Program-made: the position numbers and the translations under genes
In this document: positions 5,593 to 52,030 of the stretch, one piece after another
Position numbering within the stretch: the stretch's first letter is position 1
Layout of the letters: each line of letters opens with the position of its first letter
Notes under the pieces: model-generated
The model's input: only the letters and a program-made list of their open reading frames with translations
The model's database searches: none
Told to the model about the DNA's origin: nothing
From: an uncultured virus (IMG/VR IMGVR_UViG_3300048580_000163)
Taxonomy: Duplodnaviria > Heunggongvirae > Uroviricota > Caudoviricetes
DNA length: 64,000 nt
Reading direction: 5' to 3' (one strand)
Virus record (IMG/VR): IMGVR_UViG_3300048580_000163
Coordinates: 1-64,000 of that record

Positions 5593-5621
5593 AATATTTA
5601 GTTTTAATTACCCGCTACTTC

Positions 5622-5699
5622 TTATAACAGGTGTTTGTAAATACCAGCCGAAAATAAAATGCGTGTAGGCTGGCATCTACAAGCACCGAAACGTTATTT
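5622..5699 (+). repeat. attC-like site 5 (right end of array)
   Basis: TTATAAC-A-GGTGTTTGTAAATACCAGCC ... GGCTGGCATCTACAAGCACC-GAAAC-GTTATTT. Confidence 0.85.
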
Positions 5700-17492: not shown

Positions 17493-17744
17493 TTACTCTA
17501 CAATCACTACATTCTCATACCCCATAACCAAGTACTCGATTCCTTGATAATTGATAGGGTATGTTCTGTGTCTATCAAACCAAATGGTCTCTCCAACATT
17601 AACCTTATCTACATTCTCTCCAATCTCAATTACCTCACCTCTGTGAAACTTAATGTCTTGACCATCTCCTAAATAAAGACCGCTACTTGTCTTCACGTCT
17701 TCCTTAATTTCCTTAACTAAAATGTTACTTAATACTACCTTCAT
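17493..17744 (-). CDS. groES: Co-chaperonin GroES
   Basis: KTSSGLYL mobile loop, GEVIEIG, VNVGE; adjacent to groEL. Confidence 0.9.
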   Translation of the reverse strand: MKVVLSNILVKEIKEDVKTSSGLYLGDGQDIKFHRGEVIEIGENVDKVNVGETIWFDRHRTYPINYQGIEYLVMGYENVVIVE

Positions 17745-19306
17745 TAGTTACTTCTTTTATGTGTTATTGTGGTATTGGTTAATAAAACTGTTGTAGCTAC
17801 ACTTGCAGCATTCTCTAAGGCTAACCTAATAACCTTTGAAGGATCTATAATTCCTTTCTCAAACATATCTACAATTTCGTAATCCTTAACATCATATCCG
17901 TAGTTATCTTTTTGTGCTAATAAGTTTCCTTCAATCGAATCCAACTTAACCCCTGCATTACTTAAAATAGTGCGCATAGGAGCTTGAATTGACTCAAGTA
18001 GACACTTATATCCTTTTGATACAGGAACGAGCTTTAAAGAGGCGTTATATAGCGCTAAACCTCCTCCTACAACTACACCTTCAGATATCGCACTCTTAAC
18101 CGCATTGATTGCGTCATCTACTCTATCAATCTTCTCCTTAATTTCTACTTCAGTTGTTCCTCCGACTTTAATTACAGAAACACCACAAGCTAACTTTGAA
18201 ATACGGTCTCTTAAGTATTCCTTTTCTAAATTGTTGTTTGAGTTCTTGATTACTTTATTCAGCTCTTCAATCTTTGATTGAACCCTATCTGCATTAGGTT
18301 TCTCGTTAAAGAATAATACAGTGTCATCTTTAGTTACAGTCAATCTACTACATTTACCAAGCAATTCATTCATATCATACCCTTCAATGTTTGTAGAGGT
18401 ATCTAAATCAATAATTAAACCACCTGTAGCTAAAGAAATATCTGTCAAGTAATCTCTGCGCTTCTCACCTATACTTGGCGGTATAATTGTAGCCACTTTA
18501 AGACCGTTCTTTTTATTAGCATATAACACCTTCATAACCTCAAACTCCATTTCAGATATGATAAGTAGCTCTTTCTTTGCGTGGTGACAAAACTCTATAA
18601 CAGGTAGTAATTCTGTAATATTCTGAAACCTTCTGTTAGATAGTAAGATAAATGGGTTGTTATTAAACTCAATTGATCTATTCTCTGGTTTATTTACAAA
18701 CCCCTCAAATTCATATCCTCTTGCGATTGGCATACCGTCAATAAAGTCCAAATAGGTTTCTGAACTTTCTGATTGCTCGTAAGATACAACACCATTCTTT
18801 CCAGCAGATATAAAGGCTTTTGCAATTATTTCTCCTAATTCAGAATCATTATTTGCAGATATTCTTGCAACATCAAATAAATAAGAATCATCAACTTCTT
18901 TAGATGTACTCTTGATATAATCAACAACTTCTTTTACAGCAAAGTCAATACCATTCTTTAAATCGATTGCTGATTCACCTTTCTTTAAATACTTCTGGCT
19001 ATTGTCGATAATTGCCTTTGTAAGTACAGCTGTGCCAGTTGTACCGTCACCTGCTTCATTGACTGTTTTTCTACAAGCTTGCTTTACAAATTCACAGCCT
19101 AAACTTTCTGTTGCATCTTCAAGGAAAATACTTTCCGCTACTGATACACCATCCTTTGTTACGATTGGTAGTCCTCCTGGACTCTCAATTAATACTGTTC
19201 TACCTCTATATCCCATAGTTGTAGCAACCGCATCACAAACCGTTGAGATACCTTTAATTAAAGGCTCTTTTGCTTCTTGATTAAATTTAACTTCTTTTAT
19301 AACCAT
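17744..19306 (-). CDS. groEL: Chaperonin GroEL
   Basis: TKDGVSVA, AGDGTT, GVVVGGG, GIIDP. Confidence 0.97.
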   Translation of the reverse strand: MVIKEVKFNQEAKEPLIKGISTVCDAVATTMGYRGRTVLIESPGGLPIVTKDGVSVAESIFLEDATESLGCEFVKQACRKTVNEAGDGTTGTAVLTKAIIDNSQKYLKKGESAIDLKNGIDFAVKEVVDYIKSTSKEVDDSYLFDVARISANNDSELGEIIAKAFISAGKNGVVSYEQSESSETYLDFIDGMPIARGYEFEGFVNKPENRSIEFNNNPFILLSNRRFQNITELLPVIEFCHHAKKELLIISEMEFEVMKVLYANKKNGLKVATIIPPSIGEKRRDYLTDISLATGGLIIDLDTSTNIEGYDMNELLGKCSRLTVTKDDTVLFFNEKPNADRVQSKIEELNKVIKNSNNNLEKEYLRDRISKLACGVSVIKVGGTTEVEIKEKIDRVDDAINAVKSAISEGVVVGGGLALYNASLKLVPVSKGYKCLLESIQAPMRTILSNAGVKLDSIEGNLLAQKDNYGYDVKDYEIVDMFEKGIIDPSKVIRLALENAASVATTVLLTNTTITHKRSN

Positions 19307-23797: not shown

Positions 23798-24340
23798 ATG
23801 AGAAGTCCACATTATTTTATAGTTAGACCTTTCAATAAAGAGAGGTATTCTAATAATTCATCTAATGGATTAATTTTAAATATATCTGTTGAGGACCACA
23901 ACTTCACACAAAGATTAGCAGAAGTAGTATCAACACCTATTGGTTATGAAGGGGATGTAGAAATTGGAGATACAATAGTTGTACATCACAATACATTTAG
24001 GATTCAATATAATAATCAAGGGTTTCCTTTGGAGAGTAAATATCATATTAAAGATGACTTATTTTATGTTGAGAAGGAATTAGCTTATATGGTTATAAAG
24101 GGTGATGATAAAATTGCATTACCTCCATTTTGTTTTATAGAGCCTACAACTATCAATGATAAGTATGAAGGACATAAAGAGAATGAACAAATATGTATCT
24201 TAAAGTATAAGAATAAAGATATGACTAATCTAAACGAAGGTTCGTTGATTGGCGTTAAGAAAGATTCAGAATACGAGTTCAAGATATTTGACGAGAAGTT
24301 ATATATGATTAATCAAAATAGAATTATATTGCATTTATGA
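23798..24340 (+). CDS. GroES-like (tandem-domain) protein
   Basis: FIVRP...NGLIL...AEVVSTP...VEIGDTIVV, with a second similar half. Confidence 0.55.
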   Translation: MRSPHYFIVRPFNKERYSNNSSNGLILNISVEDHNFTQRLAEVVSTPIGYEGDVEIGDTIVVHHNTFRIQYNNQGFPLESKYHIKDDLFYVEKELAYMVIKGDDKIALPPFCFIEPTTINDKYEGHKENEQICILKYKNKDMTNLNEGSLIGVKKDSEYEFKIFDEKLYMINQNRIILHL

Positions 24341-26967
24341 TAGGATTAAGTAAAGATATAGAGATAGCTGTTGAAACTGTAATCGAAGGATTAGAGTATA
24401 GCACTGATATGTCTTTAATTGAACCTGACAAGGTAAAGACTATTGTAAAGGCTAAGGTTGATTCATTTAAGTATGGTAAGGAATTACTACTTAGATGGCA
24501 AAACAGCACAAACGCTCCTTCTGAGGATAAATTTAAGAAATATGTAGTAAGACTTGTTAAGGCTGGAGATATTGCCTTAGGAGTCCTTAGAGACGCTTTA
24601 CGTTCAAAGATTGACTACGATGATTTAGATCCTTCAAAACACCACTTAGCTATTTCAGTTAAACCATCAATTCATCAAGCGATTGTAGAAATTGATTCAT
24701 CACTTATTGAATTAAGACTTCAAATAGATGCTGATAAAATTAATCTTAAGGAGAATGAGTTTAAGAGAGGGTATCCTGAGAAGTTTGCTTGTGGAGAGTT
24801 TTTACCAAGAAAGAACTATTATAAAGAATGGTATGATGAAGAAAATGATTCAATCATATTAGACCCTAATGGTACAAGGGGTGAGGTAATAAACCTTAGT
24901 GGTTTAAATATAACTCTACCAAAAGTACCTTACAGAAAAGATATATTATTCTGGGATAAGAAGAAGGAAGATCAATATTGGAGAAGATTAGATGTGCCAA
25001 GTGGTTTATCTCAAGAAAACGCAGAAGCATACACTGAATACATTATAGAGGAATTTAGGAGAAGAAGAGAGGGTATCTGGTTTATGAATAATGGAAAACC
25101 TCAGTATCTAACTGGTAGTCATTACTTTGCACTTCAATGGGTAAAGATGGAAGATTCAGGTGGATATATGGACTTCAGGACAGCCCAAAGAGATATGTTT
25201 TATTTCACAGAGGCTTGTATTGTAGACCCTCGATGTTTAGGTGAGTTATTTGTAAAATCAAGACGTACAGGTTATACCTATCAAATTATATGTCAACTAC
25301 TTAATGATGCAACCTCAACTTCAAATGCAAGAATAGGTATGACATCAAAAACTAATGATGATGCTGCAAAGGCATTCTCTAAGTTTAGTTATGCATTCCT
25401 TAATTTACCATTCTTCTTTAAACCTATTGTAAGGGGTATTGAAGATTCAAAGAAAGCCTTAGATTTTGCAAGACCGCAAGACAAGAGTAAGTTATCTAAG
25501 AAGAATAGAGATACAAATACAGATGATTACTTAAATACGTTAGTAGACTTCTTACCAACAAAGGATTCAGCTTATGATGGTCAAAAGATGTTTAGATATC
25601 TTGGAGATGAGGCATCTAAGTGGGAAAAGCCTGCTAACTTCGAGAAGCATTGGGGTCAAGTATCACCAACATTCGATACAGGTGGTAAAATTGTAGGGAA
25701 GGCATTTATAGGCTCAACCGTTAATGCGATGAATAAGGGTGGAGAAGAATTCTTCAAACTATACAAGTCATCAAGTATTAAGAAGAGAAATAAGATTACA
25801 GGTAGAACACCATCAGGGTTGTACTCGTACTTTCTTCCAGCTCATAAGAATATGGAGGAATTCACAGATAAATATGGTGTTTGCCACGAAGTTATAGAGA
25901 AGGGTAGTTTTTACTACAATGTGTATGGTGATAAGAAGACTATTGGTAGTGTTCAATTCTTAGAGGCGAAGAGAAGTAGTAAGAGAAAGGAAAGCGACAT
26001 TTCTTATAATGAGGAATTAAGAGCATTCCCTATGACTATAGATGAAGCATTTAGAGATGAGTTGTTGCAATCTACCTTTAACATAGAAAAGATAATAGAC
26101 CAAATAAAGATAAATGAAGACCACGATGCTGATAGCAAAATTGCGGTTGGTAATTTCCAATGGAGAGATGGTATTAAAGATACAATAGTTGATTTCCACC
26201 CTAATGAGAAAGGAAGATTTAAGCTATCTTGGATACCTCCAGAGGAGATGAGGAATAAATTTGAGACAAAAAGTGGTCCAGGAGGACACTCAAAATACCC
26301 ATTAAATGGAGATATAGGGGCTTTCGGTTGTGATACATACGATATATCAGGAACAGTAGAAGGTGTTAGAAAAGATGGTTCTTACGATGAAGATACCAAT
26401 AGAGCTTCAAAGGGAGCTTTACACGGACTAACGGGATTTAGTTTTTCTAATGCACCTAATCATACGTTCTTTTTAGAGTATGTAGCAAGACCAAAAACCG
26501 CAGAGATATTCTTTGAAGATGTATTAATGGCGTGTGTATTTTATGGTATGCCTATATTAGCAGAGAATAATAAGCCACGTTTATTATATCACTTTAAGAA
26601 TAGAGGGTATAGAGGTTTTAGTATAACTCGTTTTGATAAGGCTGAAAATAGGCTTTCACCAACAGAGAAAGAATTAGGAGGTATGCCTAACTCCTCTGAA
26701 GATGTTAAGCAAATGCACGCAACAGCTATTGAATCTTACATAGAGAAATACGTTGGTAGTAATGCAGATGACGATGAAGTGCCTCAGAATATAGTGTTTA
26801 ATGACACACTAAAGGATTGGATTAAGTTTGATATTAATAATAGAACAAAGTTTGATGCCTCTATTAGTTCTGGTTTAGCTATAATGGCAGTAAATAGAAA
26901 AATGTATGCTCCAGCACAGAAGGTGACTGAGGATATAGTTATAAATTTTAAGACTTATAATAAATAA
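24337..26967 (+). CDS. terL: Terminase large subunit with long helical N-terminal extension
   Basis: KSRRTGYT Walker A, YLGDEA Walker B, IGST, GCDTYD nuclease. Confidence 0.92.
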   Translation: MIGLSKDIEIAVETVIEGLEYSTDMSLIEPDKVKTIVKAKVDSFKYGKELLLRWQNSTNAPSEDKFKKYVVRLVKAGDIALGVLRDALRSKIDYDDLDPSKHHLAISVKPSIHQAIVEIDSSLIELRLQIDADKINLKENEFKRGYPEKFACGEFLPRKNYYKEWYDEENDSIILDPNGTRGEVINLSGLNITLPKVPYRKDILFWDKKKEDQYWRRLDVPSGLSQENAEAYTEYIIEEFRRRREGIWFMNNGKPQYLTGSHYFALQWVKMEDSGGYMDFRTAQRDMFYFTEACIVDPRCLGELFVKSRRTGYTYQIICQLLNDATSTSNARIGMTSKTNDDAAKAFSKFSYAFLNLPFFFKPIVRGIEDSKKALDFARPQDKSKLSKKNRDTNTDDYLNTLVDFLPTKDSAYDGQKMFRYLGDEASKWEKPANFEKHWGQVSPTFDTGGKIVGKAFIGSTVNAMNKGGEEFFKLYKSSSIKKRNKITGRTPSGLYSYFLPAHKNMEEFTDKYGVCHEVIEKGSFYYNVYGDKKTIGSVQFLEAKRSSKRKESDISYNEELRAFPMTIDEAFRDELLQSTFNIEKIIDQIKINEDHDADSKIAVGNFQWRDGIKDTIVDFHPNEKGRFKLSWIPPEEMRNKFETKSGPGGHSKYPLNGDIGAFGCDTYDISGTVEGVRKDGSYDEDTNRASKGALHGLTGFSFSNAPNHTFFLEYVARPKTAEIFFEDVLMACVFYGMPILAENNKPRLLYHFKNRGYRGFSITRFDKAENRLSPTEKELGGMPNSSEDVKQMHATAIESYIEKYVGSNADDDEVPQNIVFNDTLKDWIKFDINNRTKFDASISSGLAIMAVNRKMYAPAQKVTEDIVINFKTYNK

Positions 26968-29445: not shown

Positions 29446-30348
29446 ATGATAGGAATATACAAGATAACTTCTCCGTCTGGGAAAATATATATAGGTCAAA
29501 GTACAAATATAAACAGCAGAATAAGAAAATACAGAAATAACAACTGTAAAAATCAAGTTAGATTGTATAATTCTATCTTAAGTTATGGATTTAAAAATCA
29601 TAGTTTTGATATTATTGAAGAGTGCTTTATAAACGAATTAAACGAAAAGGAAAGGTTTTGGCAAGATCATTATAACTCCACAGGAAATGAAGGATTGAAT
29701 TGTAAACTTACAGAAACAGATTCTCTTAGTGGTAAGCATTCAGAAGAAACAAAGTCAAAAATAGGATTTTCTAATAAAGGTAAAAAAAGAAGCGCAGAGC
29801 AAATAGAGAATATGTCTATTGTAATGAAGGGTAAATTTTCTGGGGAAAAACATCCAATGTATGGTAAAAATCATACTGAAGAAACTAAAGATAAAATATC
29901 TGAATCAAAAAAAGGCAATAAAAATATGCTTGGCAAAAATCATTCAGACGAATCTAAAGAGAAAATATCTAATTCACTTAAAGGATTTAAGCATACAGAA
30001 GAAAGTAAAATAAAAATATCAAAAGGATTAGTAGGTAGAAAAGTATCTATTGAAACTAGAAAGAAAATATCAGAAAGCAATAAAGGAACTGTATTTTCAA
30101 AAGAAAGAAGGGAGAAAATATCCAACGCATTAAAAGGAAGGGTGTTATCAAAAGAGTGCTTAGAAAAAAGAAGCAAAAGTATATCTGGGGAAAATAATTA
30201 CAAATCAAAATTAGTCTTAGATTTAGATAGTGGAATATATTATTATTGCGTAAGAGAAGCTGCTGTGGCTAGAAATATAAATATATCTACACTGAATAAT
30301 TACTTAAGTGGAAATAGACCAAATAAAACAAGTCTAATATATGTTTAA
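29446..30348 (+). CDS. GIY-YIG homing endonuclease with NUMOD3 repeats
   Basis: GIYKITSPSGKIYIGQS; repeated HSEETK.KIS; own TATATTTG at 29426. Confidence 0.92.
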   Translation: MIGIYKITSPSGKIYIGQSTNINSRIRKYRNNNCKNQVRLYNSILSYGFKNHSFDIIEECFINELNEKERFWQDHYNSTGNEGLNCKLTETDSLSGKHSEETKSKIGFSNKGKKRSAEQIENMSIVMKGKFSGEKHPMYGKNHTEETKDKISESKKGNKNMLGKNHSDESKEKISNSLKGFKHTEESKIKISKGLVGRKVSIETRKKISESNKGTVFSKERREKISNALKGRVLSKECLEKRSKSISGENNYKSKLVLDLDSGIYYYCVREAAVARNINISTLNNYLSGNRPNKTSLIYV

Positions 30349-30428: not shown

Positions 30429-31448
30429 ATGTTTAAAATGAAATTAGAAGGGTCTGAGTACTCTGATGTTCAAAATAATGATGTGATCATTGACAATGAA
30501 GGAGTGTCTGAAGTGAACGACCAAATTACAGATTCGGTTACAACAACAAATGATACACCTGATGAGATTATAGAAGACAAACAAGTTCTTACATTTAATA
30601 ATGACGATGACGTATTAGAATACCTTAAGACTAAGGAAGAATTATTATCTAAGGTAGCTCCTAAAAGCGAAAGCAAGGAATTACCAGAAGATGTTAAGAA
30701 GTACTTAGAGTTTAAAGAGGAAACAGGTAGGGGGTATAATGATTTTTTAGAATACCAAAAAGACTTTTCTGAATTAGACGAACAAGATATTGTTAAGAAG
30801 TATATGCGAGAAATGAATCCTGAATTCGACAATGAAGATATTCAAGATGAATTTTTAGATGCATACGCTTATGATGAAGACCTTGATGATGACAAGGATA
30901 TAAGAAAAAAGACTCGTGCATTTAAGAAGGCTCACGCAGATGCCTTAGAATACTTTAATAAACAAAAGGAAAAATATGCTGTACCATTAGGGTCTAGTGA
31001 TACAGAAATTCCAGCTGAATATAAAAGTGCTAAGGAGTTTGTAGATTCTATTAAAGGGCAAGAGGAATTATCTCAAAAACAGAATGAAATATTCTTGAAG
31101 GAGACTGATAATTTATTTAGCAATGAATTCAAAGGTTTTGAATTTAAAGTTGGTGAAGAAGTTATTAATCACAAACCTTCAAATATTCAATCTACGAAAG
31201 AGACACAATCAAACGTGATGAATTTTTTAGGAAAGTTCTTAGATGAGAATGGTTTTATCAAAGACCCTGAAGGATACCACAAAGCATTGTATGTAGCTAT
31301 GAACTACGAATCAATCTTATCAAACGTATATGAAACAGCTAAGGCTAAGGCTATAGAGGATGAGGTTAGAAATAGTAAGAACATAGATATGGGAATGCGT
31401 AGAGCGCCAGAGAGCATATCTACTGGCACAAAGTTTAAATTAGTATAA
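30429..31448 (+). CDS. Capsid scaffolding protein (putative)
   Basis: Acidic, immediately before MCP. Confidence 0.65.
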   Translation: MFKMKLEGSEYSDVQNNDVIIDNEGVSEVNDQITDSVTTTNDTPDEIIEDKQVLTFNNDDDVLEYLKTKEELLSKVAPKSESKELPEDVKKYLEFKEETGRGYNDFLEYQKDFSELDEQDIVKKYMREMNPEFDNEDIQDEFLDAYAYDEDLDDDKDIRKKTRAFKKAHADALEYFNKQKEKYAVPLGSSDTEIPAEYKSAKEFVDSIKGQEELSQKQNEIFLKETDNLFSNEFKGFEFKVGEEVINHKPSNIQSTKETQSNVMNFLGKFLDENGFIKDPEGYHKALYVAMNYESILSNVYETAKAKAIEDEVRNSKNIDMGMRRAPESISTGTKFKLV

Positions 31449-32875: not shown

Positions 32876-32906
32876 AAAAGAGAGGTGTAATGCCTCTCTT
32901 TTTTTT
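32876..32906. terminator. Bidirectional intrinsic terminator
   Basis: AAAAGAGAGGT/GCCTCTCTTTT plus T-run. Confidence 0.8.
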
Positions 32907-33594
32907 ATAGATACTCAAGACCTGTGTTGTTTACCTTTGTTTTCCCATTTAATAGGCATTTTACTTTTGAGTATGTAAATCCAAAATCTTCAGCGGCTTC
33001 TCTTATGCAGTCATATACCTTGCCATTGTTTGAGTTTATTATTTTTCTACTCATAGGATTATCTTCTCCTTTTTTAGATATTGTTTTCTGTATATCTGAC
33101 ATTTTTTTTCTAATCTCATCAGAGTGTTTTTTGCCATAGTAAGGATTTTTTTCTCCTTTAAATTTACCTGTATTTGATAATCTTATTTTTTCTCTTACTT
33201 CTTCTGAAGTTTTTTTCCCTTTATTTGGCGATACTGTACCATACATTGGATTTTTTTCTCCTTTTTTACTTTTACTTAATCTTATTTTAGTTTCTTCTGA
33301 ATGACTAAAACCTGCGCATCCTTCTCCTCCATCAGTTAAATTAGATAATGTTCCGTTTTTATCTATAATCTTGCCATATAGTTTTATAAATTCAATTTCT
33401 TTTTCAACAGCAAAATCCCAAGAAACGTCTTCAAAAAGTATTTCTACTTCATATTCTGTTTTAGACACAATACTATTCCATATTTTATTTCTACAAGATT
33501 TGCTTTTTGCTCTATGAAGCCCTGACCTTGTTCCTATGCCAATATAAAACACTTGATTTGTATCTTTTCGTATATGTCTATAAACGTATGCCAT
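32905..33594 (-). CDS. GIY-YIG-like homing endonuclease with NUMOD3 repeats
   Basis: YVYRH...FYIGIG, NLTDGGEG, HSEETK. Confidence 0.88.
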   Translation of the reverse strand: MAYVYRHIRKDTNQVFYIGIGTRSGLHRAKSKSCRNKIWNSIVSKTEYEVEILFEDVSWDFAVEKEIEFIKLYGKIIDKNGTLSNLTDGGEGCAGFSHSEETKIRLSKSKKGEKNPMYGTVSPNKGKKTSEEVREKIRLSNTGKFKGEKNPYYGKKHSDEIRKKMSDIQKTISKKGEDNPMSRKIINSNNGKVYDCIREAAEDFGFTYSKVKCLLNGKTKVNNTGLEYL

Positions 33595-43309: not shown

Positions 43310-46300
43310 ATGGACGAATTAAAAAAATTATACGAAGTATTAGTAAGAGAGGGGAAATACACAAAATCCTTTGATGAATTTCAAAATAAATGGTCTAATG
43401 ATGAGCCTTATAAAGACAAGGTTTATGAGGTTGTAAAAAGAGATGGTCTTTACTCTAAAGATAAAGACTCGTTCTTACAGAAATACTCAAGCGTAACGTC
43501 AAAAAAAAAAGTAGAATCGACTGGTACTTCAGAAGAAGCTCCTTCGGTATCTCCTGTACAACAAACGAAAGCAAAGTCTTTTTCGGTTGGAGGAAAACCT
43601 CTTCAAACTGGGGCTTCGGCATCTTCTGTTGGGAAAAATAAAGCCTTATTTGGCGCACCTGTTCAGTCTTTTACAGAGCAAAAGTCAAAAGAATTTAAAG
43701 AAGCGAAGAAGAAAGAAATTACTGTAATTGATAAAAAACCTGTAGTAGATATAACTTCTCAGTTCAATGTAAAACCAAATACATTTACGGAAGCTGTATC
43801 TGCTCAAGTTGATAATGATTTTAAAGTTGCTCCAGTATCCCCATTAAGCGTAGTGGTGTCTGAAAAACAAAAGCAAAGAAAAGCGTCTCAACAAGAAGGT
43901 CTTGATAATTACTTAACCAAAGAAAGCATAGATTTCGAAGATGCTTTAGCTGGTAAAGGATTTCTTAATAATGTAGAAAATTTTGCAAGAGGCTCTTGGA
44001 ATACAGCCTTAGCCTTAGCTTCTAATTTGCCATTTGGTATTGGGGAGAAAGCAAGTGAAGTAATAGGAAGCACTGGAGTTGTAGCTGATAAAACATCTGT
44101 AGATAAATACTTTAATAAAGCAAAGCAAGAGTTTGAAAAAGAAGGTAAAAGCGTAACTCCTGAGAGATTAAAAGAAAGAGCAAAAGAGATAAAATTAAAG
44201 GAAGCTAAGGATAATTATATTGAGAATCAAGACGCTGAATTCTTAAACGAAATAAAAAATGAAGAATATGTAGACCCTAAATCTGGTGAAGTTATTAAAA
44301 TTCAAGATGCATTAAGAATAAATGATTTTGAAAAATACAATACACTAAATAAAGAGTCTGTAAAATACTCAAACCTATTAAAATTAAATAAAGAGAAGGT
44401 AGATGGTTTTTATAATGACTTAAAGCAAACTAAGAATGTATTAAACCACCAGATAATATTTGGTAACTTTGATTACGCTACAGATATATACAATGGTCTT
44501 TTAAATAAAGAAGATAAGAATCAAGATGATTTAGATTTTATATCTTACTACGAAACTAATAAAGATAAAGCTGCATCTAGCCCTATAAATCCTAATTTAA
44601 AGCAAATAGTTAGTAAGTTAGAGGAAGAAATTAAATCTAAAGCAGACGACTTTAATTCTGCATTAGATACTCAACTTAACTACATAGAGAAATTTGATAA
44701 ATCATTCACTGGAAAAGAAGATGCTTATGACGACTTCGATAACTCAAGAAGAAGTTACGATGGTGTTTTTGGAGATAAGGTTTATTTATCGGCAGCAGAG
44801 ACAGTGAATGGAACTATTAAGACAATTCAAACATTAGCTGAATTATCAGACAAACTTAAAGGTAAAATAGGTCTTCCTTTACAAGGAGCTGACTCATACC
44901 TATTCAATAAAGTATTTAAAGATTATAATTACTACGACTTTTCTAAAGAGTTAGAGAAACAAAAAGAACTTGTAAGAGAAGATGTAAAGGAAGTAACTAA
45001 CGCAAGTAGTTTACTAAACTATGTATCAGATGTAACAGCTACTCAAACAGGTCAAATGGCTTTACCTATGCTTGCTGGATATGGAAAAGTAGCTATGCCT
45101 TTATTAAGACAATCTGCCGTTTATTTTTCATCAGGTTTTGGTAGAGGTGTTGGTGAATCTGAAGAATTTGAAGAGAGGTTTAAAAGAGGTTTAGTTGAGC
45201 CTGGAGAGATAGGTAAAGTACATACGTTTGCTGAGAAGTTGATTCACGGAGGTATTACTGGAGGAGCTGATATATTAGGTAATTTGCCAACAGCCTTAAG
45301 GTTATCCAAATCATTTAACTCGCTACTTTCAAAACCAGAGACTGCTAATATATTTTGGAAAAGCTGGACCAAAAAAGGATTAGATGAGGCAAAAGAACTT
45401 GGTACTGATTTATTAAAAGAGAACACGGAAGAGTCTTTAGCTGAAATATTCCAGGACTTATCAAGAGTATTTGTGCTTAATGAAGATGGCGTGAATATAG
45501 GTCAATCTATTGATGATGTAATAAAAGATACTACAACATTTACATTAATATCTAAAATATTCCCACTTATGGGTAGAGGTGTTATAAATAGAATTGCATC
45601 TACTTCTGACAAGAATAAGATTTCTGAACTTGAAAAAGAGTTGTATTATTGGAAAGGAAAACTTGGTGAAAATGTTAGTGAAGAAACTAAAGCTATATAT
45701 TCCGATAGAATTTCTAAGATACAATCAAATATAGATAAGACCAATTTATCTATAATAGATAAGGTTAAGAAAGATGCTGGAGGAGTAAGTGCTATTGAAT
45801 CTTTAAATACAGAAATAGATAATATGCTTCAAGAGGCTAATAAGATAAATGAGAACAAAGAATTATCTAAAGAAGAAAAGAAGGTATTATTAGATGCTCA
45901 AAAAGAATTATACACTTCGTTGATTTCTAACAGAGATGCGTTAATAGATGGAAGTAAAACATCATTTGATTTATTACCTGAAGAAGTTCAGACTAAATTC
46001 AAAGATGAAGCAAAAAGTATATTAAAACAAGCATTGATTGATAAAGGAGAAGAAGAAACTTTAATAAATATAAATGCAGAATCAATAAACAACAAAGCAA
46101 AAGAATTATATAACCAAAAAATAGAAGAAGATGCAAAAAGAAAGCAAACTGATGGGCAAATCACCAGTGAAGAAAAGCCTACAACCACAGCCGAAGAACA
46201 AACCGTTAGCACAACACAGCAAGAAGGTAATGTCGGGTTGCAAGAAAAAATAAATTCTGTAGAGTTAGATTTTAATAATAATAACTTAGATAAAATAGAA

Positions 46301-49300
46301 ATCTCTCTATCTAGACAAGGTTTTATTGGTGATTTTTTAAATGACTATGAATTCTTAGCTGAAGGAAGTGAGCATTCTGTTTATATAAGTAAAGATGGAA
46401 AAACTGTTATAAAGATAGGAGAGCCTTACGGAAGTAATGAGGGGTTTATGCCAAGAGTAAAGGATGCAATTTCAATAAGTAATTTAATTGGAGATGGCAG
46501 TCTTGAGGTTATAGGTTATTATGAGCAAAATGGAGTTAAAAACCCTATATATAAACAAAATTATTTAAAAGGAGAGACCGCTTCTCAATCAGAGGTTTCT
46601 TCTTATTTAGAGTCTAAAGGTTTTTTAAATATAGGAAATGATAACTTTGTTGTAAATGTAGATGGTAAGTTTTTAAGAATATCAGATACGTCTGACAATT
46701 TTATAAAAGATGATAACGGAAATATTTTTGCTATAGATGCAGGCATAGTTGAAATATCTGAAAATGATTTAACAGACAGTCAAAAACAAGAAATTAACAA
46801 AAAAAACATTAAAACACAAGAAGAAATAGTAACGCCTAAAGATGAAGATTTAGAAATACAAGAAGATGAGGTAATAACTATTCCAGAAGACGAGATAGAG
46901 GCTTTAAGACAAGAAGTTACTGAACAAAGAATAGAGGGTAGTTTATCTGATAATATCGGTCAAAAAGGATATATTGGATCAAAAGAAGGTATGATTAAGA
47001 TAGATGATACCAATCGAAACACTATTGTATTTGAAACAAATAATGAAATAATAGAGTTAGGAAAGGTTAATGAAGATTCTAACAGACCGATAGCGTCTTT
47101 TGGTATTTCTAAATTCCCTCAAGAAGGAGTAAGAACGGAAGCTAAGCAAGGTAAATCAATACCAGTAGTAAAAATAGATGGTAAAGAATATGAATTTGTA
47201 AGTAGAGCGAGAGACAAAAAAGGAAAAGCTGTTGTTAAATTAAAAGAAAAAGAAACTGGTCTTGTAAGAAGAATATCTGGAGAAAAAGCAGAGAGAATTT
47301 TAAAAGATGTTTCATTGCAATCTGACAAAAAAGAGACAAAACTTAATTTACAAGTGGCTGGTAAAGAAGTTGTTGGAAAAACAGATAAAGAAATAAAAGC
47401 AGAAGAGAAGAAAAGAAATTCTGAAGAAAGAAGAAAGAGAAGAGAAGAGTTTCAATCTAAAACACTTAACGAACTTAAAGAAGAAGAAAAGAAATCAGAA
47501 GAATTATTAGCTAAAATAGAAGAAGAAATATTAGATGAATTAGTTAAGAAATCTAAGAACAAAGATTTAGTTAAGGTAGGTCAAAGAGTATTTCAAGTAA
47601 CCAAAAAACAAGATGGAACATTTGCCGTATCACAAGTAAATCCTGAAGGTAAACTTGTTGGTATTAGAGATGAGGCTACAAGAAATAAAGCTATTGGCGT
47701 ATTTAAAGCTAAAAAAACAAAGGCAGATAAAAAAGATTTACAAGAGGCTCAAAACTTAATAGAAAGCTTTAAGAAAGATGAAAGAGATAGAATTGAGAAA
47801 CTATTAGATAAAGCTATAAGTGCTTTAGATTTAAAAGGTAAGGGTGCTTTTGATGCTTCAATAGCCTTACCAGCTTACGCTGCTAAAAAGTTCTTACAAG
47901 GAATTAAGGTTTCTTATAAAGCAGGTAAAACTCTTGCGGAAGCTATAAATGATGGTATAAAACTAGTTAGAGATATGGGCTATATATCTGTTTCTGATTT
48001 TGATTTAAAGGAATACGCATTAAAACAATTATCAACTAAAAAAGAAGACAAAGATGCCATTCAAGAGCAAACAACAAGTGAAATTCCTGTACAGCCAGAA
48101 ACCGCAGTTAGCGAAGAAGTGGAGCAAGGAGAACCCGAAGCAAAACCTGAAGAGTCTACCGAGCAAGGTGAAGAAAAAGTAAAACCACTAAAAGAAGTTA
48201 AGAGTCAACTACAAGAGCTATTTAGTGCAGCTAAAGAAGCTATATCTATAACGAAAAATAGAGCTAAAGAAATTGATAAGTTAAAGAAAGACTTAAATCA
48301 ATTTGTAAAGTCTAATTTAGTTGGTCTTGATGCTTCTGATATTATGAAGTCTGCTTATCAGAAAATAACGTCATTAGTTCAAAATACTACTGATGCAAAC
48401 TTTGAGGGGCAAGCAGAAAAGATTAATGATATTATAGATGACTTATATCTTAGAAGAGAGTTAAGAGACGAGGCTATACTTGACAAGAAAATCAAGGAAG
48501 CTTCTAAAGATACTTTTTACAAGGATAAAACTTCTGGAAAAGTTACCAAAACTAAAGTAACTGATGAATTTAAGAAGAAGATTGAAGAGGCTAAGAAGAA
48601 GTTCTCTAAAATAAACAACCCTACAATAGCTGATAAGACTGTATTTTATTTGGAGGTTAATAAACTATTAAAAGATGGTATTAAGGCAAGAAAAGCTATA
48701 AATGAAGCAAGAGATTCTAAATCAAGAGAGAATGCAAATAGATTAGCTATAATTTCTTTAAATAAGAATAAGAGTATTGAGCCTAAGAAAACAGTTAAAC
48801 TAGAGTCAACTACAATAGATAAGATTTTCGATAAATTCTCAGGTGGAGTTATCTTTAATGGTAAGATATATTTGAATACAAAATCAGGTAAATCTAACTT
48901 TATCACAGATACTGAAGGACTAAGTAGGGTGTCTTTTAATCCAATATCTACATCAAATGTAGCTAGTAGTGCGGAAACTAATAGAAAGGGCTTTAAAACG
49001 GCTTTTAATGACATTAGAAGAAGATATAGTACCGCAACATTCAGTGCTGATAAATTTTTTGAGCCTTTATTTTCAGTTGAAGGAGCTAAAGAATTCCTTG
49101 ATAAAAATTGGATAAATAGACTGAAGGTTTACTCTGAGAAGCTTGGTAGAAAAGTAAGTGAATTTAGAGATGTTCGTGATAACTTTATTAAGGATGTTAT
49201 TGGTAAAGATAATTTCTTAAACAATAATAGAATCTTAAAGTCTAATACATACGATGTAATTAAGACTGCTGTTGCTATATTTAAGGGTGGTGATAAGAGT

Positions 49301-52030
49301 AGTCCTCTTTGGTCTTTTGTTGGTAGAAATGAAATTCAATTTAGCATAGATGTTAATGGAAAGAAAGTTGAAGGAGACTATCTTGGTATTATTGACGAAT
49401 TAGATTTAATGATTAAGAAAGACCCTTCTATAAAGAAATTTAAAGACCAATTTGTAAGTAGATATATTCCTTTCGATAAAATGAAGAATGAAGGTGTTGC
49501 AGCATTATTTAATATGCTTAGACAACCTGAAGGATTGAATAAATTCTTAAATTCATATTCAATTGATGACGCTAAGGCTATTATATCTTATGTAAATGAG
49601 AATCCTGGAATTAGAGAGGTTGCTGATAAGTCTGCTAAATTGTTTGAAAATATAAGAGATTATGTAAATCCTACATTAGATAAATTAGGATATGATACTT
49701 TAGGTGAGGCAAAATATGTTAGTAAAGAGGATGCGTTAAAAATTAAAGATGATAAGTCAACTAGAGATTTGTATGAGATTTTAGATATGGTTTACCCTAA
49801 TGGTCTTCCTGAAAAGATACCATACTATCCATTATCGGCTGAATCATTATCTGGTACAAATGAAGGCAATGTTTTAGAGTTCTTTGAAGATTCTGAGAAT
49901 CCTAATGCTGATTATAGTCTATTATTCCCTTCTTTATTTACAAGAACATCTGGAGGTAATTTAAACCTTAATGATTTATCTGTAACACGTTCATTTGACA
50001 ATATAGCAAAAGAAGCTATCACATTAGTTCAAGGGTCTGATATTGTATCTGATGTTAGGAATTTATATGCTAATGAAGGAAACAATGTGGCTATGATTAG
50101 TGCATTTGGAAAAAGTTGGAATGATAAGTTTAAGACAAAGATATTAAACATAGTTAGAGACGATGCTTATAATACATCTATGGGGTCTAAAGACTTAGTA
50201 GGGTCTGCATCAAGATTTTGGGTAGCAAGTAGATCAACACTTAGAGCGGCTCAGTTAGCTTTAAATGCATTTTCAGCTATATCTCAGTTAACTGGTATTC
50301 CAATTGCTTATGCTAAGAAAGGAAACCTTAAATACCTAAAAGATACATTAAAGAATTTAGCTAAAAAAGAAACTAGAAATAAAGAGTTTAATGAATTAAA
50401 AGAAGCTTATAACGCAATAGTTAATTCGAAGAACTACATTGAGAGAACAAATAAGAGGAAAGATAATGCTGAGGTTGCTGCTATTCAAAGTATAAATGAT
50501 AACTTAGGTTACAGGGTTTCTGGAGCATTAATATCTGACTTACTTATATTCACAACAGTATTCGACCAAATATCAGTTATAGCTTTAACACCACTATATA
50601 AAGGTAAATACCAAGTAGACTCGCAAACTACAACTACTGAAAATGTAGATGAGTTCTTTGCAGAGGAAGTTAATAAGACATTGCAATCAAATGCTCCATT
50701 CTATACTGGTACTGCGTTTTATCAGAAATGGGCTTTAGCTTTAGGTTTAGGAGGATATTTGCAATCTCCAAGACAGATTATGGAGATGATGAGTTCTGAT
50801 ATAAATTCAATGTTAAGAAAAGATGGAGATTATGCTTCTAAGATGAAGAGGATTATAGCTATGTCGTCTTTTGGACTAATACTTCCTGTAATGATAAAAG
50901 AGGCTCTTAGAGGCAGTGATGATGAAGATGAGGAAAGTAAAGCAGATAAGAAGACATCTATATTGCAGTTTGGAAATAAAATTATAGATTCTATACTTGA
51001 GAGTATGGGGTTTGCTGGAACGTTAACATCTTCAATTAAGAATGCTGCTTTAATTAAATATAGTCCTGACGTTATGGAGATGGATGTAAATCCTTCCGAT
51101 CTTAAATCTCAAGATGTGGTTATGCAAGCATTAAAAGGAGCTTCACCAAACATATCTATAACAATGAGGGGTATTGATAATGTAATTGATAAGAAAGAGA
51201 TATACACAAATACAGACCAATTCTTATTTGCTTTAGAGACTGGAACTGGATTTGCTGGAGCTAAACTTAAAAAGAATATAGACTACGTTGTAGCGGTTGG
51301 AAGTGAAAGTTATGACTACAAAGATTATTGGTCTTTAGTAACAGGTAAGGTAACTCAAGATGAATTCAAGCAGTACGAAAAAGAGTTAAATACATTTAGA
51401 GAAACTTTAGATAAGGCTGTATATCCTAGATTAACACCTAATAAGACGTTAAATACATCATTCTTAAATGAGAAGCAAATGAACGAGTTGTCTAAGATGG
51501 GCTTTGAACAAAAAGCAGAGTACATTGAGAATATAAGACTTAATTTAATGCGCAAGAGTGTAGTAGAGCAGGTTGAATTCCTTAAGAAGTTAGGCGGTAT
51601 GGATAAGACTAAAGGCTACTATAAAGTAAGGGAGTCTAAGATAAAAGAAGAGCTATCTGAAGACGCATTTAAGTTACTTGAGAATAAGTATTATAGTGGA
51701 GAGAATTTAATGACAGTAGAAGAGTTAACTGACAAGTTAGATGAGTTTGCTAAAGAAGAGAATATATCAGAAGAAACATCTTTAAGCATATTAAAGGAAG
51801 CTATAAAGAAAGCTAACGAAAAGATAAGTGAAAAGTTTGTTATTCCAGCTATAAAGAAATTAGATAAAGTGAGTAAAGGTAGGGATAGAGCTAAGTATAT
51901 TTACGATAATGTAGGTGATTTAATGGAAGGAGATAATATTAAATATATTGAAATGATGGGAGATGATTTCGATGAAGATACTAGCGATGAATACTTTGAA
52001 ATACTAAGGAAGAAACAAAATAATAAGTAA
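43310..52030 (+). CDS. Giant polyvalent ejection protein with kinase-like domain
   Basis: 2906 aa; EGSEHSVY...VIK...DTSDN...AIDAG at about 46350-46760. Confidence 0.75.
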   Translation: MDELKKLYEVLVREGKYTKSFDEFQNKWSNDEPYKDKVYEVVKRDGLYSKDKDSFLQKYSSVTSKKKVESTGTSEEAPSVSPVQQTKAKSFSVGGKPLQTGASASSVGKNKALFGAPVQSFTEQKSKEFKEAKKKEITVIDKKPVVDITSQFNVKPNTFTEAVSAQVDNDFKVAPVSPLSVVVSEKQKQRKASQQEGLDNYLTKESIDFEDALAGKGFLNNVENFARGSWNTALALASNLPFGIGEKASEVIGSTGVVADKTSVDKYFNKAKQEFEKEGKSVTPERLKERAKEIKLKEAKDNYIENQDAEFLNEIKNEEYVDPKSGEVIKIQDALRINDFEKYNTLNKESVKYSNLLKLNKEKVDGFYNDLKQTKNVLNHQIIFGNFDYATDIYNGLLNKEDKNQDDLDFISYYETNKDKAASSPINPNLKQIVSKLEEEIKSKADDFNSALDTQLNYIEKFDKSFTGKEDAYDDFDNSRRSYDGVFGDKVYLSAAETVNGTIKTIQTLAELSDKLKGKIGLPLQGADSYLFNKVFKDYNYYDFSKELEKQKELVREDVKEVTNASSLLNYVSDVTATQTGQMALPMLAGYGKVAMPLLRQSAVYFSSGFGRGVGESEEFEERFKRGLVEPGEIGKVHTFAEKLIHGGITGGADILGNLPTALRLSKSFNSLLSKPETANIFWKSWTKKGLDEAKELGTDLLKENTEESLAEIFQDLSRVFVLNEDGVNIGQSIDDVIKDTTTFTLISKIFPLMGRGVINRIASTSDKNKISELEKELYYWKGKLGENVSEETKAIYSDRISKIQSNIDKTNLSIIDKVKKDAGGVSAIESLNTEIDNMLQEANKINENKELSKEEKKVLLDAQKELYTSLISNRDALIDGSKTSFDLLPEEVQTKFKDEAKSILKQALIDKGEEETLININAESINNKAKELYNQKIEEDAKRKQTDGQITSEEKPTTTAEEQTVSTTQQEGNVGLQEKINSVELDFNNNNLDKIEISLSRQGFIGDFLNDYEFLAEGSEHSVYISKDGKTVIKIGEPYGSNEGFMPRVKDAISISNLIGDGSLEVIGYYEQNGVKNPIYKQNYLKGETASQSEVSSYLESKGFLNIGNDNFVVNVDGKFLRISDTSDNFIKDDNGNIFAIDAGIVEISENDLTDSQKQEINKKNIKTQEEIVTPKDEDLEIQEDEVITIPEDEIEALRQEVTEQRIEGSLSDNIGQKGYIGSKEGMIKIDDTNRNTIVFETNNEIIELGKVNEDSNRPIASFGISKFPQEGVRTEAKQGKSIPVVKIDGKEYEFVSRARDKKGKAVVKLKEKETGLVRRISGEKAERILKDVSLQSDKKETKLNLQVAGKEVVGKTDKEIKAEEKKRNSEERRKRREEFQSKTLNELKEEEKKSEELLAKIEEEILDELVKKSKNKDLVKVGQRVFQVTKKQDGTFAVSQVNPEGKLVGIRDEATRNKAIGVFKAKKTKADKKDLQEAQNLIESFKKDERDRIEKLLDKAISALDLKGKGAFDASIALPAYAAKKFLQGIKVSYKAGKTLAEAINDGIKLVRDMGYISVSDFDLKEYALKQLSTKKEDKDAIQEQTTSEIPVQPETAVSEEVEQGEPEAKPEESTEQGEEKVKPLKEVKSQLQELFSAAKEAISITKNRAKEIDKLKKDLNQFVKSNLVGLDASDIMKSAYQKITSLVQNTTDANFEGQAEKINDIIDDLYLRRELRDEAILDKKIKEASKDTFYKDKTSGKVTKTKVTDEFKKKIEEAKKKFSKINNPTIADKTVFYLEVNKLLKDGIKARKAINEARDSKSRENANRLAIISLNKNKSIEPKKTVKLESTTIDKIFDKFSGGVIFNGKIYLNTKSGKSNFITDTEGLSRVSFNPISTSNVASSAETNRKGFKTAFNDIRRRYSTATFSADKFFEPLFSVEGAKEFLDKNWINRLKVYSEKLGRKVSEFRDVRDNFIKDVIGKDNFLNNNRILKSNTYDVIKTAVAIFKGGDKSSPLWSFVGRNEIQFSIDVNGKKVEGDYLGIIDELDLMIKKDPSIKKFKDQFVSRYIPFDKMKNEGVAALFNMLRQPEGLNKFLNSYSIDDAKAIISYVNENPGIREVADKSAKLFENIRDYVNPTLDKLGYDTLGEAKYVSKEDALKIKDDKSTRDLYEILDMVYPNGLPEKIPYYPLSAESLSGTNEGNVLEFFEDSENPNADYSLLFPSLFTRTSGGNLNLNDLSVTRSFDNIAKEAITLVQGSDIVSDVRNLYANEGNNVAMISAFGKSWNDKFKTKILNIVRDDAYNTSMGSKDLVGSASRFWVASRSTLRAAQLALNAFSAISQLTGIPIAYAKKGNLKYLKDTLKNLAKKETRNKEFNELKEAYNAIVNSKNYIERTNKRKDNAEVAAIQSINDNLGYRVSGALISDLLIFTTVFDQISVIALTPLYKGKYQVDSQTTTTENVDEFFAEEVNKTLQSNAPFYTGTAFYQKWALALGLGGYLQSPRQIMEMMSSDINSMLRKDGDYASKMKRIIAMSSFGLILPVMIKEALRGSDDEDEESKADKKTSILQFGNKIIDSILESMGFAGTLTSSIKNAALIKYSPDVMEMDVNPSDLKSQDVVMQALKGASPNISITMRGIDNVIDKKEIYTNTDQFLFALETGTGFAGAKLKKNIDYVVAVGSESYDYKDYWSLVTGKVTQDEFKQYEKELNTFRETLDKAVYPRLTPNKTLNTSFLNEKQMNELSKMGFEQKAEYIENIRLNLMRKSVVEQVEFLKKLGGMDKTKGYYKVRESKIKEELSEDAFKLLENKYYSGENLMTVEELTDKLDEFAKEENISEETSLSILKEAIKKANEKISEKFVIPAIKKLDKVSKGRDRAKYIYDNVGDLMEGDNIKYIEMMGDDFDEDTSDEYFEILRKKQNNK
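46131..46253 (+). CDS. Nested +1-frame small basic ORF (40 aa)
   Basis: MQKESKLMGKSPVKKSLQPQPKNKPLAQHSKKVMSGCKKK; A-rich upstream. Confidence 0.45.
   Translation: MQKESKLMGKSPVKKSLQPQPKNKPLAQHSKKVMSGCKKK
48054..48182 (+). CDS. Nested +1-frame MPFKS-type small basic protein (42 aa)
   Basis: MPFKSKQQVKFLYSQKPQLAKKWSKENPKQNLKSLPSKVKKK. Confidence 0.65.
   Translation: MPFKSKQQVKFLYSQKPQLAKKWSKENPKQNLKSLPSKVKKK

Follow-up and report, generated by a model that had tools for sequence, protein, structure and literature searches.

Does a short reading frame that lies one base out of register inside a giant phage gene encode a protein of its own, and, if so, which of the two overlapping frames does selection keep? 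This question is raised by a locus in an uncultured virus of the class Caudoviricetes (IMG/VR record IMGVR_UViG_3300048580_000163), of which positions 1 to 64,000 were analyzed and are hereafter called the window. At the end of its virion module, the window carries an open reading frame (ORF) of 2906 codons on the plus strand (43310..52030), and within it, at 48054..48182 (+), a second ORF of 42 codons plus TAA runs from ATG to stop in the +1 frame. The host-frame reading of the overlap (48053..48181, +) is an acidic linker of 43 residues, DAIQEQTT...EEKV, which corresponds to residues 1582-1624 of the giant protein. An earlier reading made from the letters alone (the sequence-only reading) had described this small ORF, its translation, its +1 frame, its 2906-residue host and the acidic linker that it spans, all of which were reproduced exactly, and had proposed that it is a real nested gene. 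We likewise consider it probable, at about 0.82, that 48054-48182 truly encodes a protein, its gene lying within the giant virion-module gene with a one-base shift of frame.

The two readings of this DNA differ sharply in composition. The small product would contain 13 Lys plus Arg versus 1 Asp plus Glu (isoelectric point 10.56, charge +11.5), and the linker contains 14 Asp plus Glu versus 2 Lys plus Arg (charge -12.2). The length of the small ORF is no more than chance would give, as six stop-free runs of at least 43 codons occur in the +1 and +2 frames of the giant gene; its +1 frame holds three ATG-initiated ORFs of at least 30 amino acids. Because ORF length alone is unremarkable, the case for the small gene rests on homology and on frame-specific evolution.

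A family of small basic proteins in three genomic arrangements

The window ORF opens with MPFKS, and the sequence-only reading had likened its product to stand-alone small phage proteins with this start. The likeness is borne out in three ways. Firstly, residues 3-27 of the window peptide match phrog_1375 (E=9.6e-4), a group of small phage proteins of unknown function that is also matched by 31 of 45 scanned family proteins. Secondly, free-standing MPFKS ORFs of 34-39 codons, one of them annotated, are present in C75C1, S-CBS2 and 023Pt_psg01. Thirdly, a hidden Markov model built from the 31 unique free-standing members only recovers the window ORF over residues 1-42 at E=5.6e-17, while the next of 2310 six-frame pieces scores E=3.2. 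Met1, Pro2 and Phe3 are invariant in the 74 sequences aligned, and when 1.84 billion cluster representatives were searched with a wide profile made from these 74 members, 4178 matched at E<=1e-3, of which 641 reached E<=1e-10. Of the best 150 profile hits, 135 have the module beginning at residue 1-3; by length, 39 of the 150 are at most 60 amino acids and 66 at least 100. Judged by these profile matches, the nested ORF is a member of a large family of phage proteins, PHROG 1375 and its relatives, that are small and basic, begin MPFKS and for the most part are encoded by free-standing genes of head-morphogenesis modules. The sequence-only reading had held that its proposal would fail if stand-alone homologs were lacking and the ATG and stop were not conserved in homologous linkers; such homologs exist, and both codons are conserved, as described below.

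The window copy shares with the free-standing genes (e.g., URG13095.1, 023Pt_psg01) a common core, MPFKS(K/E).Q..(F/Y/W)(L/M)(Y/F)...P..AK(K/R)W, in proteins of 35-55 amino acids with a Lys-rich tail. The protein family is thus the same, but the arrangement differs: the window copy has no intergenic position and lies wholly inside 43310..52030. It also differs in using AGC for Ser5 and mostly AAG for Lys, and because of this codon choice the host frame stays open. In Pfam, the window peptide has no family at E<=10, nor do the 74 members at E<=1, scattered chance matches aside. DUF3008 (PF11450), which we take to have a similar KSK.Q start, was considered and set aside, since none of the 74 members matches it at E<=1; the nearest Pfam-bearing cluster in a language-model search is viral with 15% DUF3008 members (score 0.86), and both points serve as a lead only.

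The same gene is frequently hidden by annotation. A tblastn search returned 83 GenBank phage records with a match, and in 68 elemovirus records together with MW202828 the match falls inside a giant annotated coding sequence while the small ORF is unannotated (69/69). The nested ORF of elemoC runs from ATG to stop over 42 codons and that of MW202828 over 43. No published account of the nested gene was found in literature searches on elemoviruses, on embedded and overlapping small phage genes (which yielded general papers only) or with the start of the peptide as text (which led to unrelated work).

A search of IMG/VR with the family alignment matched at least 600 stretches, of which 381 were confirmed as relatives and the best 80 were kept. 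Together with the window and 5 GenBank loci these make up a set of 86 loci, in which three arrangements are found. At 32 of the 86 loci an open frame longer than 2 kb encloses the small ORF (giant-nested). At 21 the small ORF is nested in an acidic gene of about 400 codons, starting 23-60 codons after the ATG of that gene, which sits between the portal and a phrog_13704 protein, that is, in the position of a scaffolding gene (scaffold-nested). The remaining 33 are free-standing, including L059 (63% GC, all three frames open), which was assigned by hand: 8 nt separate the end of an upstream 541-amino-acid ORF from the small ATG, and the conserved part of the next gene starts after the small stop. 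All 53 nested loci have the small ORF in the +1 frame of the host gene, with the third frame closed by stops.

The scaffold-nested phages have the same gene order and PHROGs as the window. The scaffold-position protein of the window itself (30429..31448) is 38% identical to that of the scaffold-nested loci over 261 residues, and its N-terminus holds no nested ORF. Exactly one strong copy of the small gene occurs in each of five related records (5/5) and in the complete genome of the window. One record with a scaffold-nested copy has a 2068-amino-acid open frame that is weakly matched (E=3e-5) by the C-terminal third of the giant protein, and it has no second copy.

A truncated copy was observed in elemoC (L001, MT497067), where a second start at 5605-5637 reads MPFKSKKLMK and then stops (10 codons), 132 host codons upstream of the intact ORF. 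It lies under a repeated host motif, QEDAVQKQ, and may be a relic of cassette duplication or recombination.

Start signals and the frame that selection keeps

If the small frame is a gene, ribosomes need a reason to begin at its ATG. The sequence-only reading had noted an A-rich start context, and A is indeed present at -16..-11, -9, -8, -6, -4, -3 and -2. Within the initiation region (48037..48053, +), A occupies -14..-11 (48040-48043), -6 (48048) and -3 (48051), and there is no Shine-Dalgarno (SD) sequence. In Flavobacterium johnsoniae, according to PMC6847099, initiation is promoted by A at -14..-11 (chiefly -12 and -13), -6 and -3, and SD sequences go unused; the A positions of the nested start match the determinants given there. 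Across the 31 unique giant-nested loci, the frequency of A is 0.68/0.81/0.77/0.87 at -14..-11 and 0.71 at -3, against a host-gene background of 0.35-0.39, and the starts of the window's own genes show an A peak likewise at -14..-11. Scored with a position weight matrix, the nested ATG outranks most of 1132 internal ATGs (97.3rd percentile). A 70-nt segment spanning the start has a folding energy of only -1.4 kcal/mol, and RNA structure there is weak and no different from shuffles (z=0.92).

Usage of SD sequences follows the genomes in which the gene sits. An SD-like motif precedes none of the 44 window ORFs of at least 120 amino acids, and the nested forms in general occur in genomes with almost no SD usage, while many free-standing forms occur in SD-using genomes and have a GGAGG of their own. 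Three giant-nested loci (L016, L027 and L085) have GGAGG 5-13 nt upstream of the nested ATG and a fourth (L068) has GGAG; other ORFs at these four loci almost never have an SD sequence. On the preferred reading, ribosomes would start at the internal ATG on late structural mRNA by means of the SD-free, A-rich signals of Bacteroidota hosts, which would result in a separate protein of 42 residues.

A different use of the small frame would be by frameshifting, in which either the N-terminal 1581 residues of the giant protein would be joined to a basic tail, or the MPFKS module would slip -1 at its lysine tail into the C-terminal 1280 residues. The module does form the N-terminal domain of longer proteins in those 66 of the best 150 profile hits that reach 100 amino acids, and in one predicted protein of 1075 amino acids (P0095) it stands in frame at the C-terminus, after a 1034-residue part resembling the N-terminal part of a giant gene. 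P0095 had no match to the giant protein of the window, and it may be either a natural fused form or an assembly indel. The window ORF moreover ends AAG AAA AAG TAA, and ribosomes can be prone to shift at Lys codons that precede a stop. Nevertheless, the window ORF has no in-frame X_XXY_YYZ heptamer; 11 of the 32 giant-nested ORFs have one, located mid-ORF and not in the tail, and no slippery site is conserved at the 3' end in these 32. Lys is mostly AAG, with a median longest A run of 4. A small-frame stop lies 1 to 30 codons upstream of the ATG (median about 4); in the window it is the TAA at 48021..48023 (+), 10 codons before the nested ATG, with the stop-free run beginning at 48024, and frameshift entry from the host frame is therefore limited to a 10-codon space. 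Nothing upstream of the ATG is conserved beyond A-richness, whereas the ATG itself is invariant and the free-standing forms start there. Frameshifting is thus an improbable account of the locus, and internal initiation of a nested gene is preferred.

Evidence for the nested gene also comes from the pattern of substitution. Most loci were found via the small peptide, which biases them towards its frame, and this was countered with an IMG/VR search using the host-frame linker and with flank controls. In all eight confirmed loci from the host-frame search (8/8) the small ORF is unbroken from ATG to stop, even though the sequences on either side are unrelated. Six of the eight were set against the window; L090, which equals L089 over the printed region, and the elemo-type L093, which carries indels, were left out. 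These six show 47 changes that alter the host protein but leave the small one intact, and 8 of the reverse kind. The four diverged loci among them retain 81-93% identity in the small frame versus 56-63% in the host frame.

Codon positions tell the same story. In 13 pairs of giant-nested loci chosen as tree neighbours, mismatches within the overlap fall at host codon positions 1/2/3 as 165/53/31 (13/13 pairs), whereas in flanks used at >=30% identity they are distributed as 187/135/291 upstream (4 pairs) and 114/83/145 downstream (2 pairs). Column entropy in 10 scaffold-nested loci behaves alike, with 17.1/11.3/7.4 at host positions 1/2/3 in the overlap, versus 48.2/26.5/140.6 over 142 columns downstream and 16.6/8.0/20.0 over 23 columns upstream. 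Beyond the overlap, therefore, the two host genes evolve like any coding sequence, while inside it the wobble is that of the small gene's third base. As read from these comparative patterns, purifying selection acts on the frame of the small gene and not on that of the giant gene. The proposal of a real nested gene accordingly gains from both lines, the ATG and stop kept in every linker found through the host frame and selection that follows the small frame.

The giant proteins bear the mark of this from the other side. In a BLASTP comparison of the window's giant protein with 31 other giant hosts (E<=1e-5), 25 of 31 were matched and 6 were without a match; a high-scoring segment pair covered the overlap in 24, and in 22 it was the only one. 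The giant protein of elemoC was matched elsewhere and not at the linker. Outside the nested ORF, the giant-nested loci have unrelated upstream protein sequences, and, the start context aside, conservation sets in at the ATG and ends at the stop. What these giant proteins keep best is thus an acidic low-complexity spacer, and it is preserved for a reason that lies in another frame.

Such conservation might also be explained if the conserved thing were the host-frame linker, as a processing or docking site, or a nucleotide recombination element, with the small ORF a mere passenger. A host-frame motif, (D/N)A(V/I)Q(E/K)Q..(D/E).., is present in all nested forms, the cassette lies between non-homologous flanks, and the truncated second copy in elemoC would fit recombination at the cassette sequence. 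We find this very improbable, however, since variation in the overlap is lowest at host position 3 and highest at position 1, with the flanks reversed, and since the 47 to 8 excess for the small frame holds even in loci that were found through the host frame. Furthermore, the same sequence exists free-standing without a long overlapping frame, sometimes with its own GGAGG, and a nucleotide element would not give third-position wobble in one frame. That the ORF is a functionless chance product of a Glu/Lys-rich stretch, as the six stop-free runs of at least 43 codons in the alternative frames might allow, is scarcely credible, being contradicted by the free-standing profile (E=5.6e-17), the 47 to 8 substitutions and the codon-position data.

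Related strains were seen in the environment as well. Contigs from lake metagenomes (two DNA runs) align to the window at 48034-48124, where the match is limited to the nested ORF and is lost on either side of it; within the ORF they differ by Y13F, Q18K and K21E together with small-frame-silent changes.

Order of events and comparison with known overlapping genes

The relative age of the two partners was approached with a tree of 74 peptides over 48 columns, rooted at the midpoint. Nineteen scaffold-nested rows form one group (98/92), which is sister (95/83) to a main group of 25 giant-nested rows. The free-standing rows lie outside these nested groups, and the giant-nested L046, L055 and L068 sit elsewhere. 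The host-frame linker was found only together with the nested gene, while free-standing members of the family occur also in SD-using and high-GC phages. Because of this tree and the wide distribution of free-standing forms, the sequence comparison favours a history in which an old small gene was later covered by larger genes, at least twice or with relocation. The small gene would be the older partner, and the giant gene in this phage, like the scaffold-position gene in sister phages, would have grown or fused across it. The sequence-only reading had called the gene overprinted, that is, born inside the giant gene; this is unlikely, given that the small gene is widespread alone and the host-frame linker is confined to the nested lineage.

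In classical overprinting, of which the genes B in A, E in D and K of phiX174 are examples, the nested frame is the young one. The present locus resembles phiX174 in its out-of-frame dual coding and in the asymmetric constraint on the two frames. It differs in that the nested gene is widespread alone (the 4178 cluster representatives), whereas the host-frame reading is lineage-restricted and weakly constrained. Here the embedded partner is the conserved one and probably the older.

A second comparison is offered by Rz/Rz1 of phage lambda, where a larger gene fully contains a small same-strand gene in its +1 frame, and where the pair is embedded or separate in different phages. The window has the same geometry, with no link of sequence or function. 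Its product lacks a signal peptide, a lipobox, Cys and a hydrophobic N-terminus, its gene belongs to a virion module, and it is not a spanin. Moreover, the MPFKS gene is embedded in two unrelated hosts, giant and scaffold-position, in sister phages, and here it is the embedded gene, not its host, that is the conserved partner.

The opposite charges of the two products deserve separate consideration, as the sequence-only reading had seen in the basic product a mirror of the acidic linker. The charges are indeed opposite, but the mirroring is mechanical and the causality runs the other way. Among the 13 Lys codons (AAR), the host frame reads 12 as GAA (Glu, 8) or CAA (Gln, 4), and because Lys codons are read in this manner, the acidity of the linker is a by-product of the code.

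A bolder scenario may nevertheless be drawn, in which an old head-module gene was swallowed by its neighbours, which read its Lys-rich DNA in the -1 frame as an acidic spacer, its cassette moved between scaffold-position and giant genes, and the +11.5 peptide may bind the -12.2 linker. Peptide and linker might bind each other because a single stretch of DNA encodes both. As a whole we hold this scenario to be unlikely. If it were true, the small protein would act on the linker that conceals its own gene, by docking, neutralisation or chaperoning, and the dose of the small protein would be coupled to that of the giant or scaffold protein during head assembly.

Product, proposed role and genome setting

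An AlphaFold2 model of the small protein from the 74-row alignment has a predicted local distance difference test score of 86.2, with helices at residues 6-15 and 17-26 followed by an extended basic tail. A Foldseek search of the PDB (one row, E=5.9) and a wide VIA-align search (one row, Z=2.5) gave no usable fold information. Profile matches in the PDB to designed propeller repeats (Cake, Bagel, Scone) were judged spurious, being sums of 4-bit repeats with i-Evalues in the hundreds.

The neighbourhood of the free-standing copies bears on the role of the product. L044 lies directly after the portal and is followed by scaffold and major head genes, and L070 lies directly after a 635-amino-acid ORF that follows the terminase. 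Six others (L037, L043, L050, L069, L073 and L079) stand beside phrog_7595/phrog_220-like 'minor head protein and DNA pilot' genes, and L053, L054, L063, L077, L078 and L059 adjoin terminase genes. Because free-standing copies tend to sit in head modules, we infer that the small protein may have a role in head assembly or packaging, in which it would bind a polyanion. It may be pictured as two helices forming a hairpin, with Met-Pro-Phe free at the N-terminus and lysines in the tail, acting through DNA or an acidic head protein; the sequence-only reading had suggested that the product may bind DNA in the virion.

The extensions of the 66 long forms that carry the module cluster in groups of 5, 4, 3, 3 and 2 plus singletons and are heterogeneous, most being singletons: DUF5661 is found in 4 of 61 scanned (P0019, P0062, P0135 and P0150), and others are Gly/Ala-rich or membrane-like. 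No window protein matched the C-terminal extensions of these 66 fused forms at E<=1e-3. The 980-amino-acid fused P0077, which by eye resembled the C-terminal half of the giant protein in having a hydrophobic stretch followed by an acidic patch, was rejected after BLASTP gave a best E of 0.029 elsewhere and 6.6 at that place.

The locus is also represented in RNA libraries, where two metatranscriptome runs of one sample yielded contigs identical to parts of 46500-49500, including 47924-48329.

Several points weigh against a genuine nested gene with the history and role proposed here. The case for translation is indirect for the window phage and its relatives alike; the RNA-library contigs over 47924-48329 reveal neither the ends of a transcript nor its translation and may stem from carried-over DNA. 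The nested start context, high among internal ATGs, ranks only at the 29th percentile when set against the true gene starts of the window. With 20.5 bits, the window peptide is a weak match to the public phrog_1375 model. Discovery of most loci through the small peptide favours the small frame, with the host-frame search and flank controls as the counterweight, and the host-frame set is itself small, with eight loci of which six were compared and two of these are near-identical to the window. The 48-column, midpoint-rooted tree leaves the small-gene-first order short of proof. Finally, the role rests on neighbourhood and composition, no Pfam family or structural neighbour having been found.

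If the nested gene is real, the implications reach beyond this phage. Gene callers forbid nesting on the same strand, and a conserved phage gene has thus been invisible, and is unannotated in 69 GenBank records. Because it goes unannotated, censuses of small proteins and core gene sets compiled for aquatic Bacteroidota phages would lack it and be incomplete. Where a giant protein has one segment conserved above the rest, the cause can lie entirely in another frame, which may mislead analyses of domains and linkers. The same gene occurring free-standing, nested in one host and nested in another would provide a natural series for the origin of overlaps with the small gene first, and the system lets one ask how SD-free hosts permit internal starts. 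The question is directly testable, since Flavobacterium sp. BAL314 serves as a culture host for elemoviruses and the small ORF can be altered without changing the host protein.

The record from which the window is drawn measures 68,141 bases and is rated 100% complete. Window DNA is present in lake-water metagenomes, and the nearest named relatives with the same nested ORF are the Flavobacterium elemoviruses. The genome encodes GroEL, a GroES-like protein, a large terminase, a portal, several PHROG virion structural proteins and two homing endonucleases, and the giant gene is a neighbour of the terminase, portal and virion structural genes. The giant protein itself matched no Pfam or PHROG family.

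Some further features of the window may be recorded. The GroEL gene lies at 17744-19306 (-) (E=1.4e-125) and the GroES-like gene at 23798-24340 (+); the scaffold-nested relatives also carry a GroES-like gene, upstream of the terminase. The large terminase (24337-26967, +) has 876 residues with its PHROG match starting at residue 163; the terminases of relatives have 735-737 residues, and the window terminase therefore has an N-terminal extension. Two phrog_314 homing-endonuclease genes lie in the head module, one at 29446-30348 (+) between the portal and the scaffold-position gene, and the other at 32905-33594 (-) after the phrog_13704 gene, on the opposite strand. Inside the giant gene, an antisense ORF of 122 codons opens with ATG at 48646-49014 (-).

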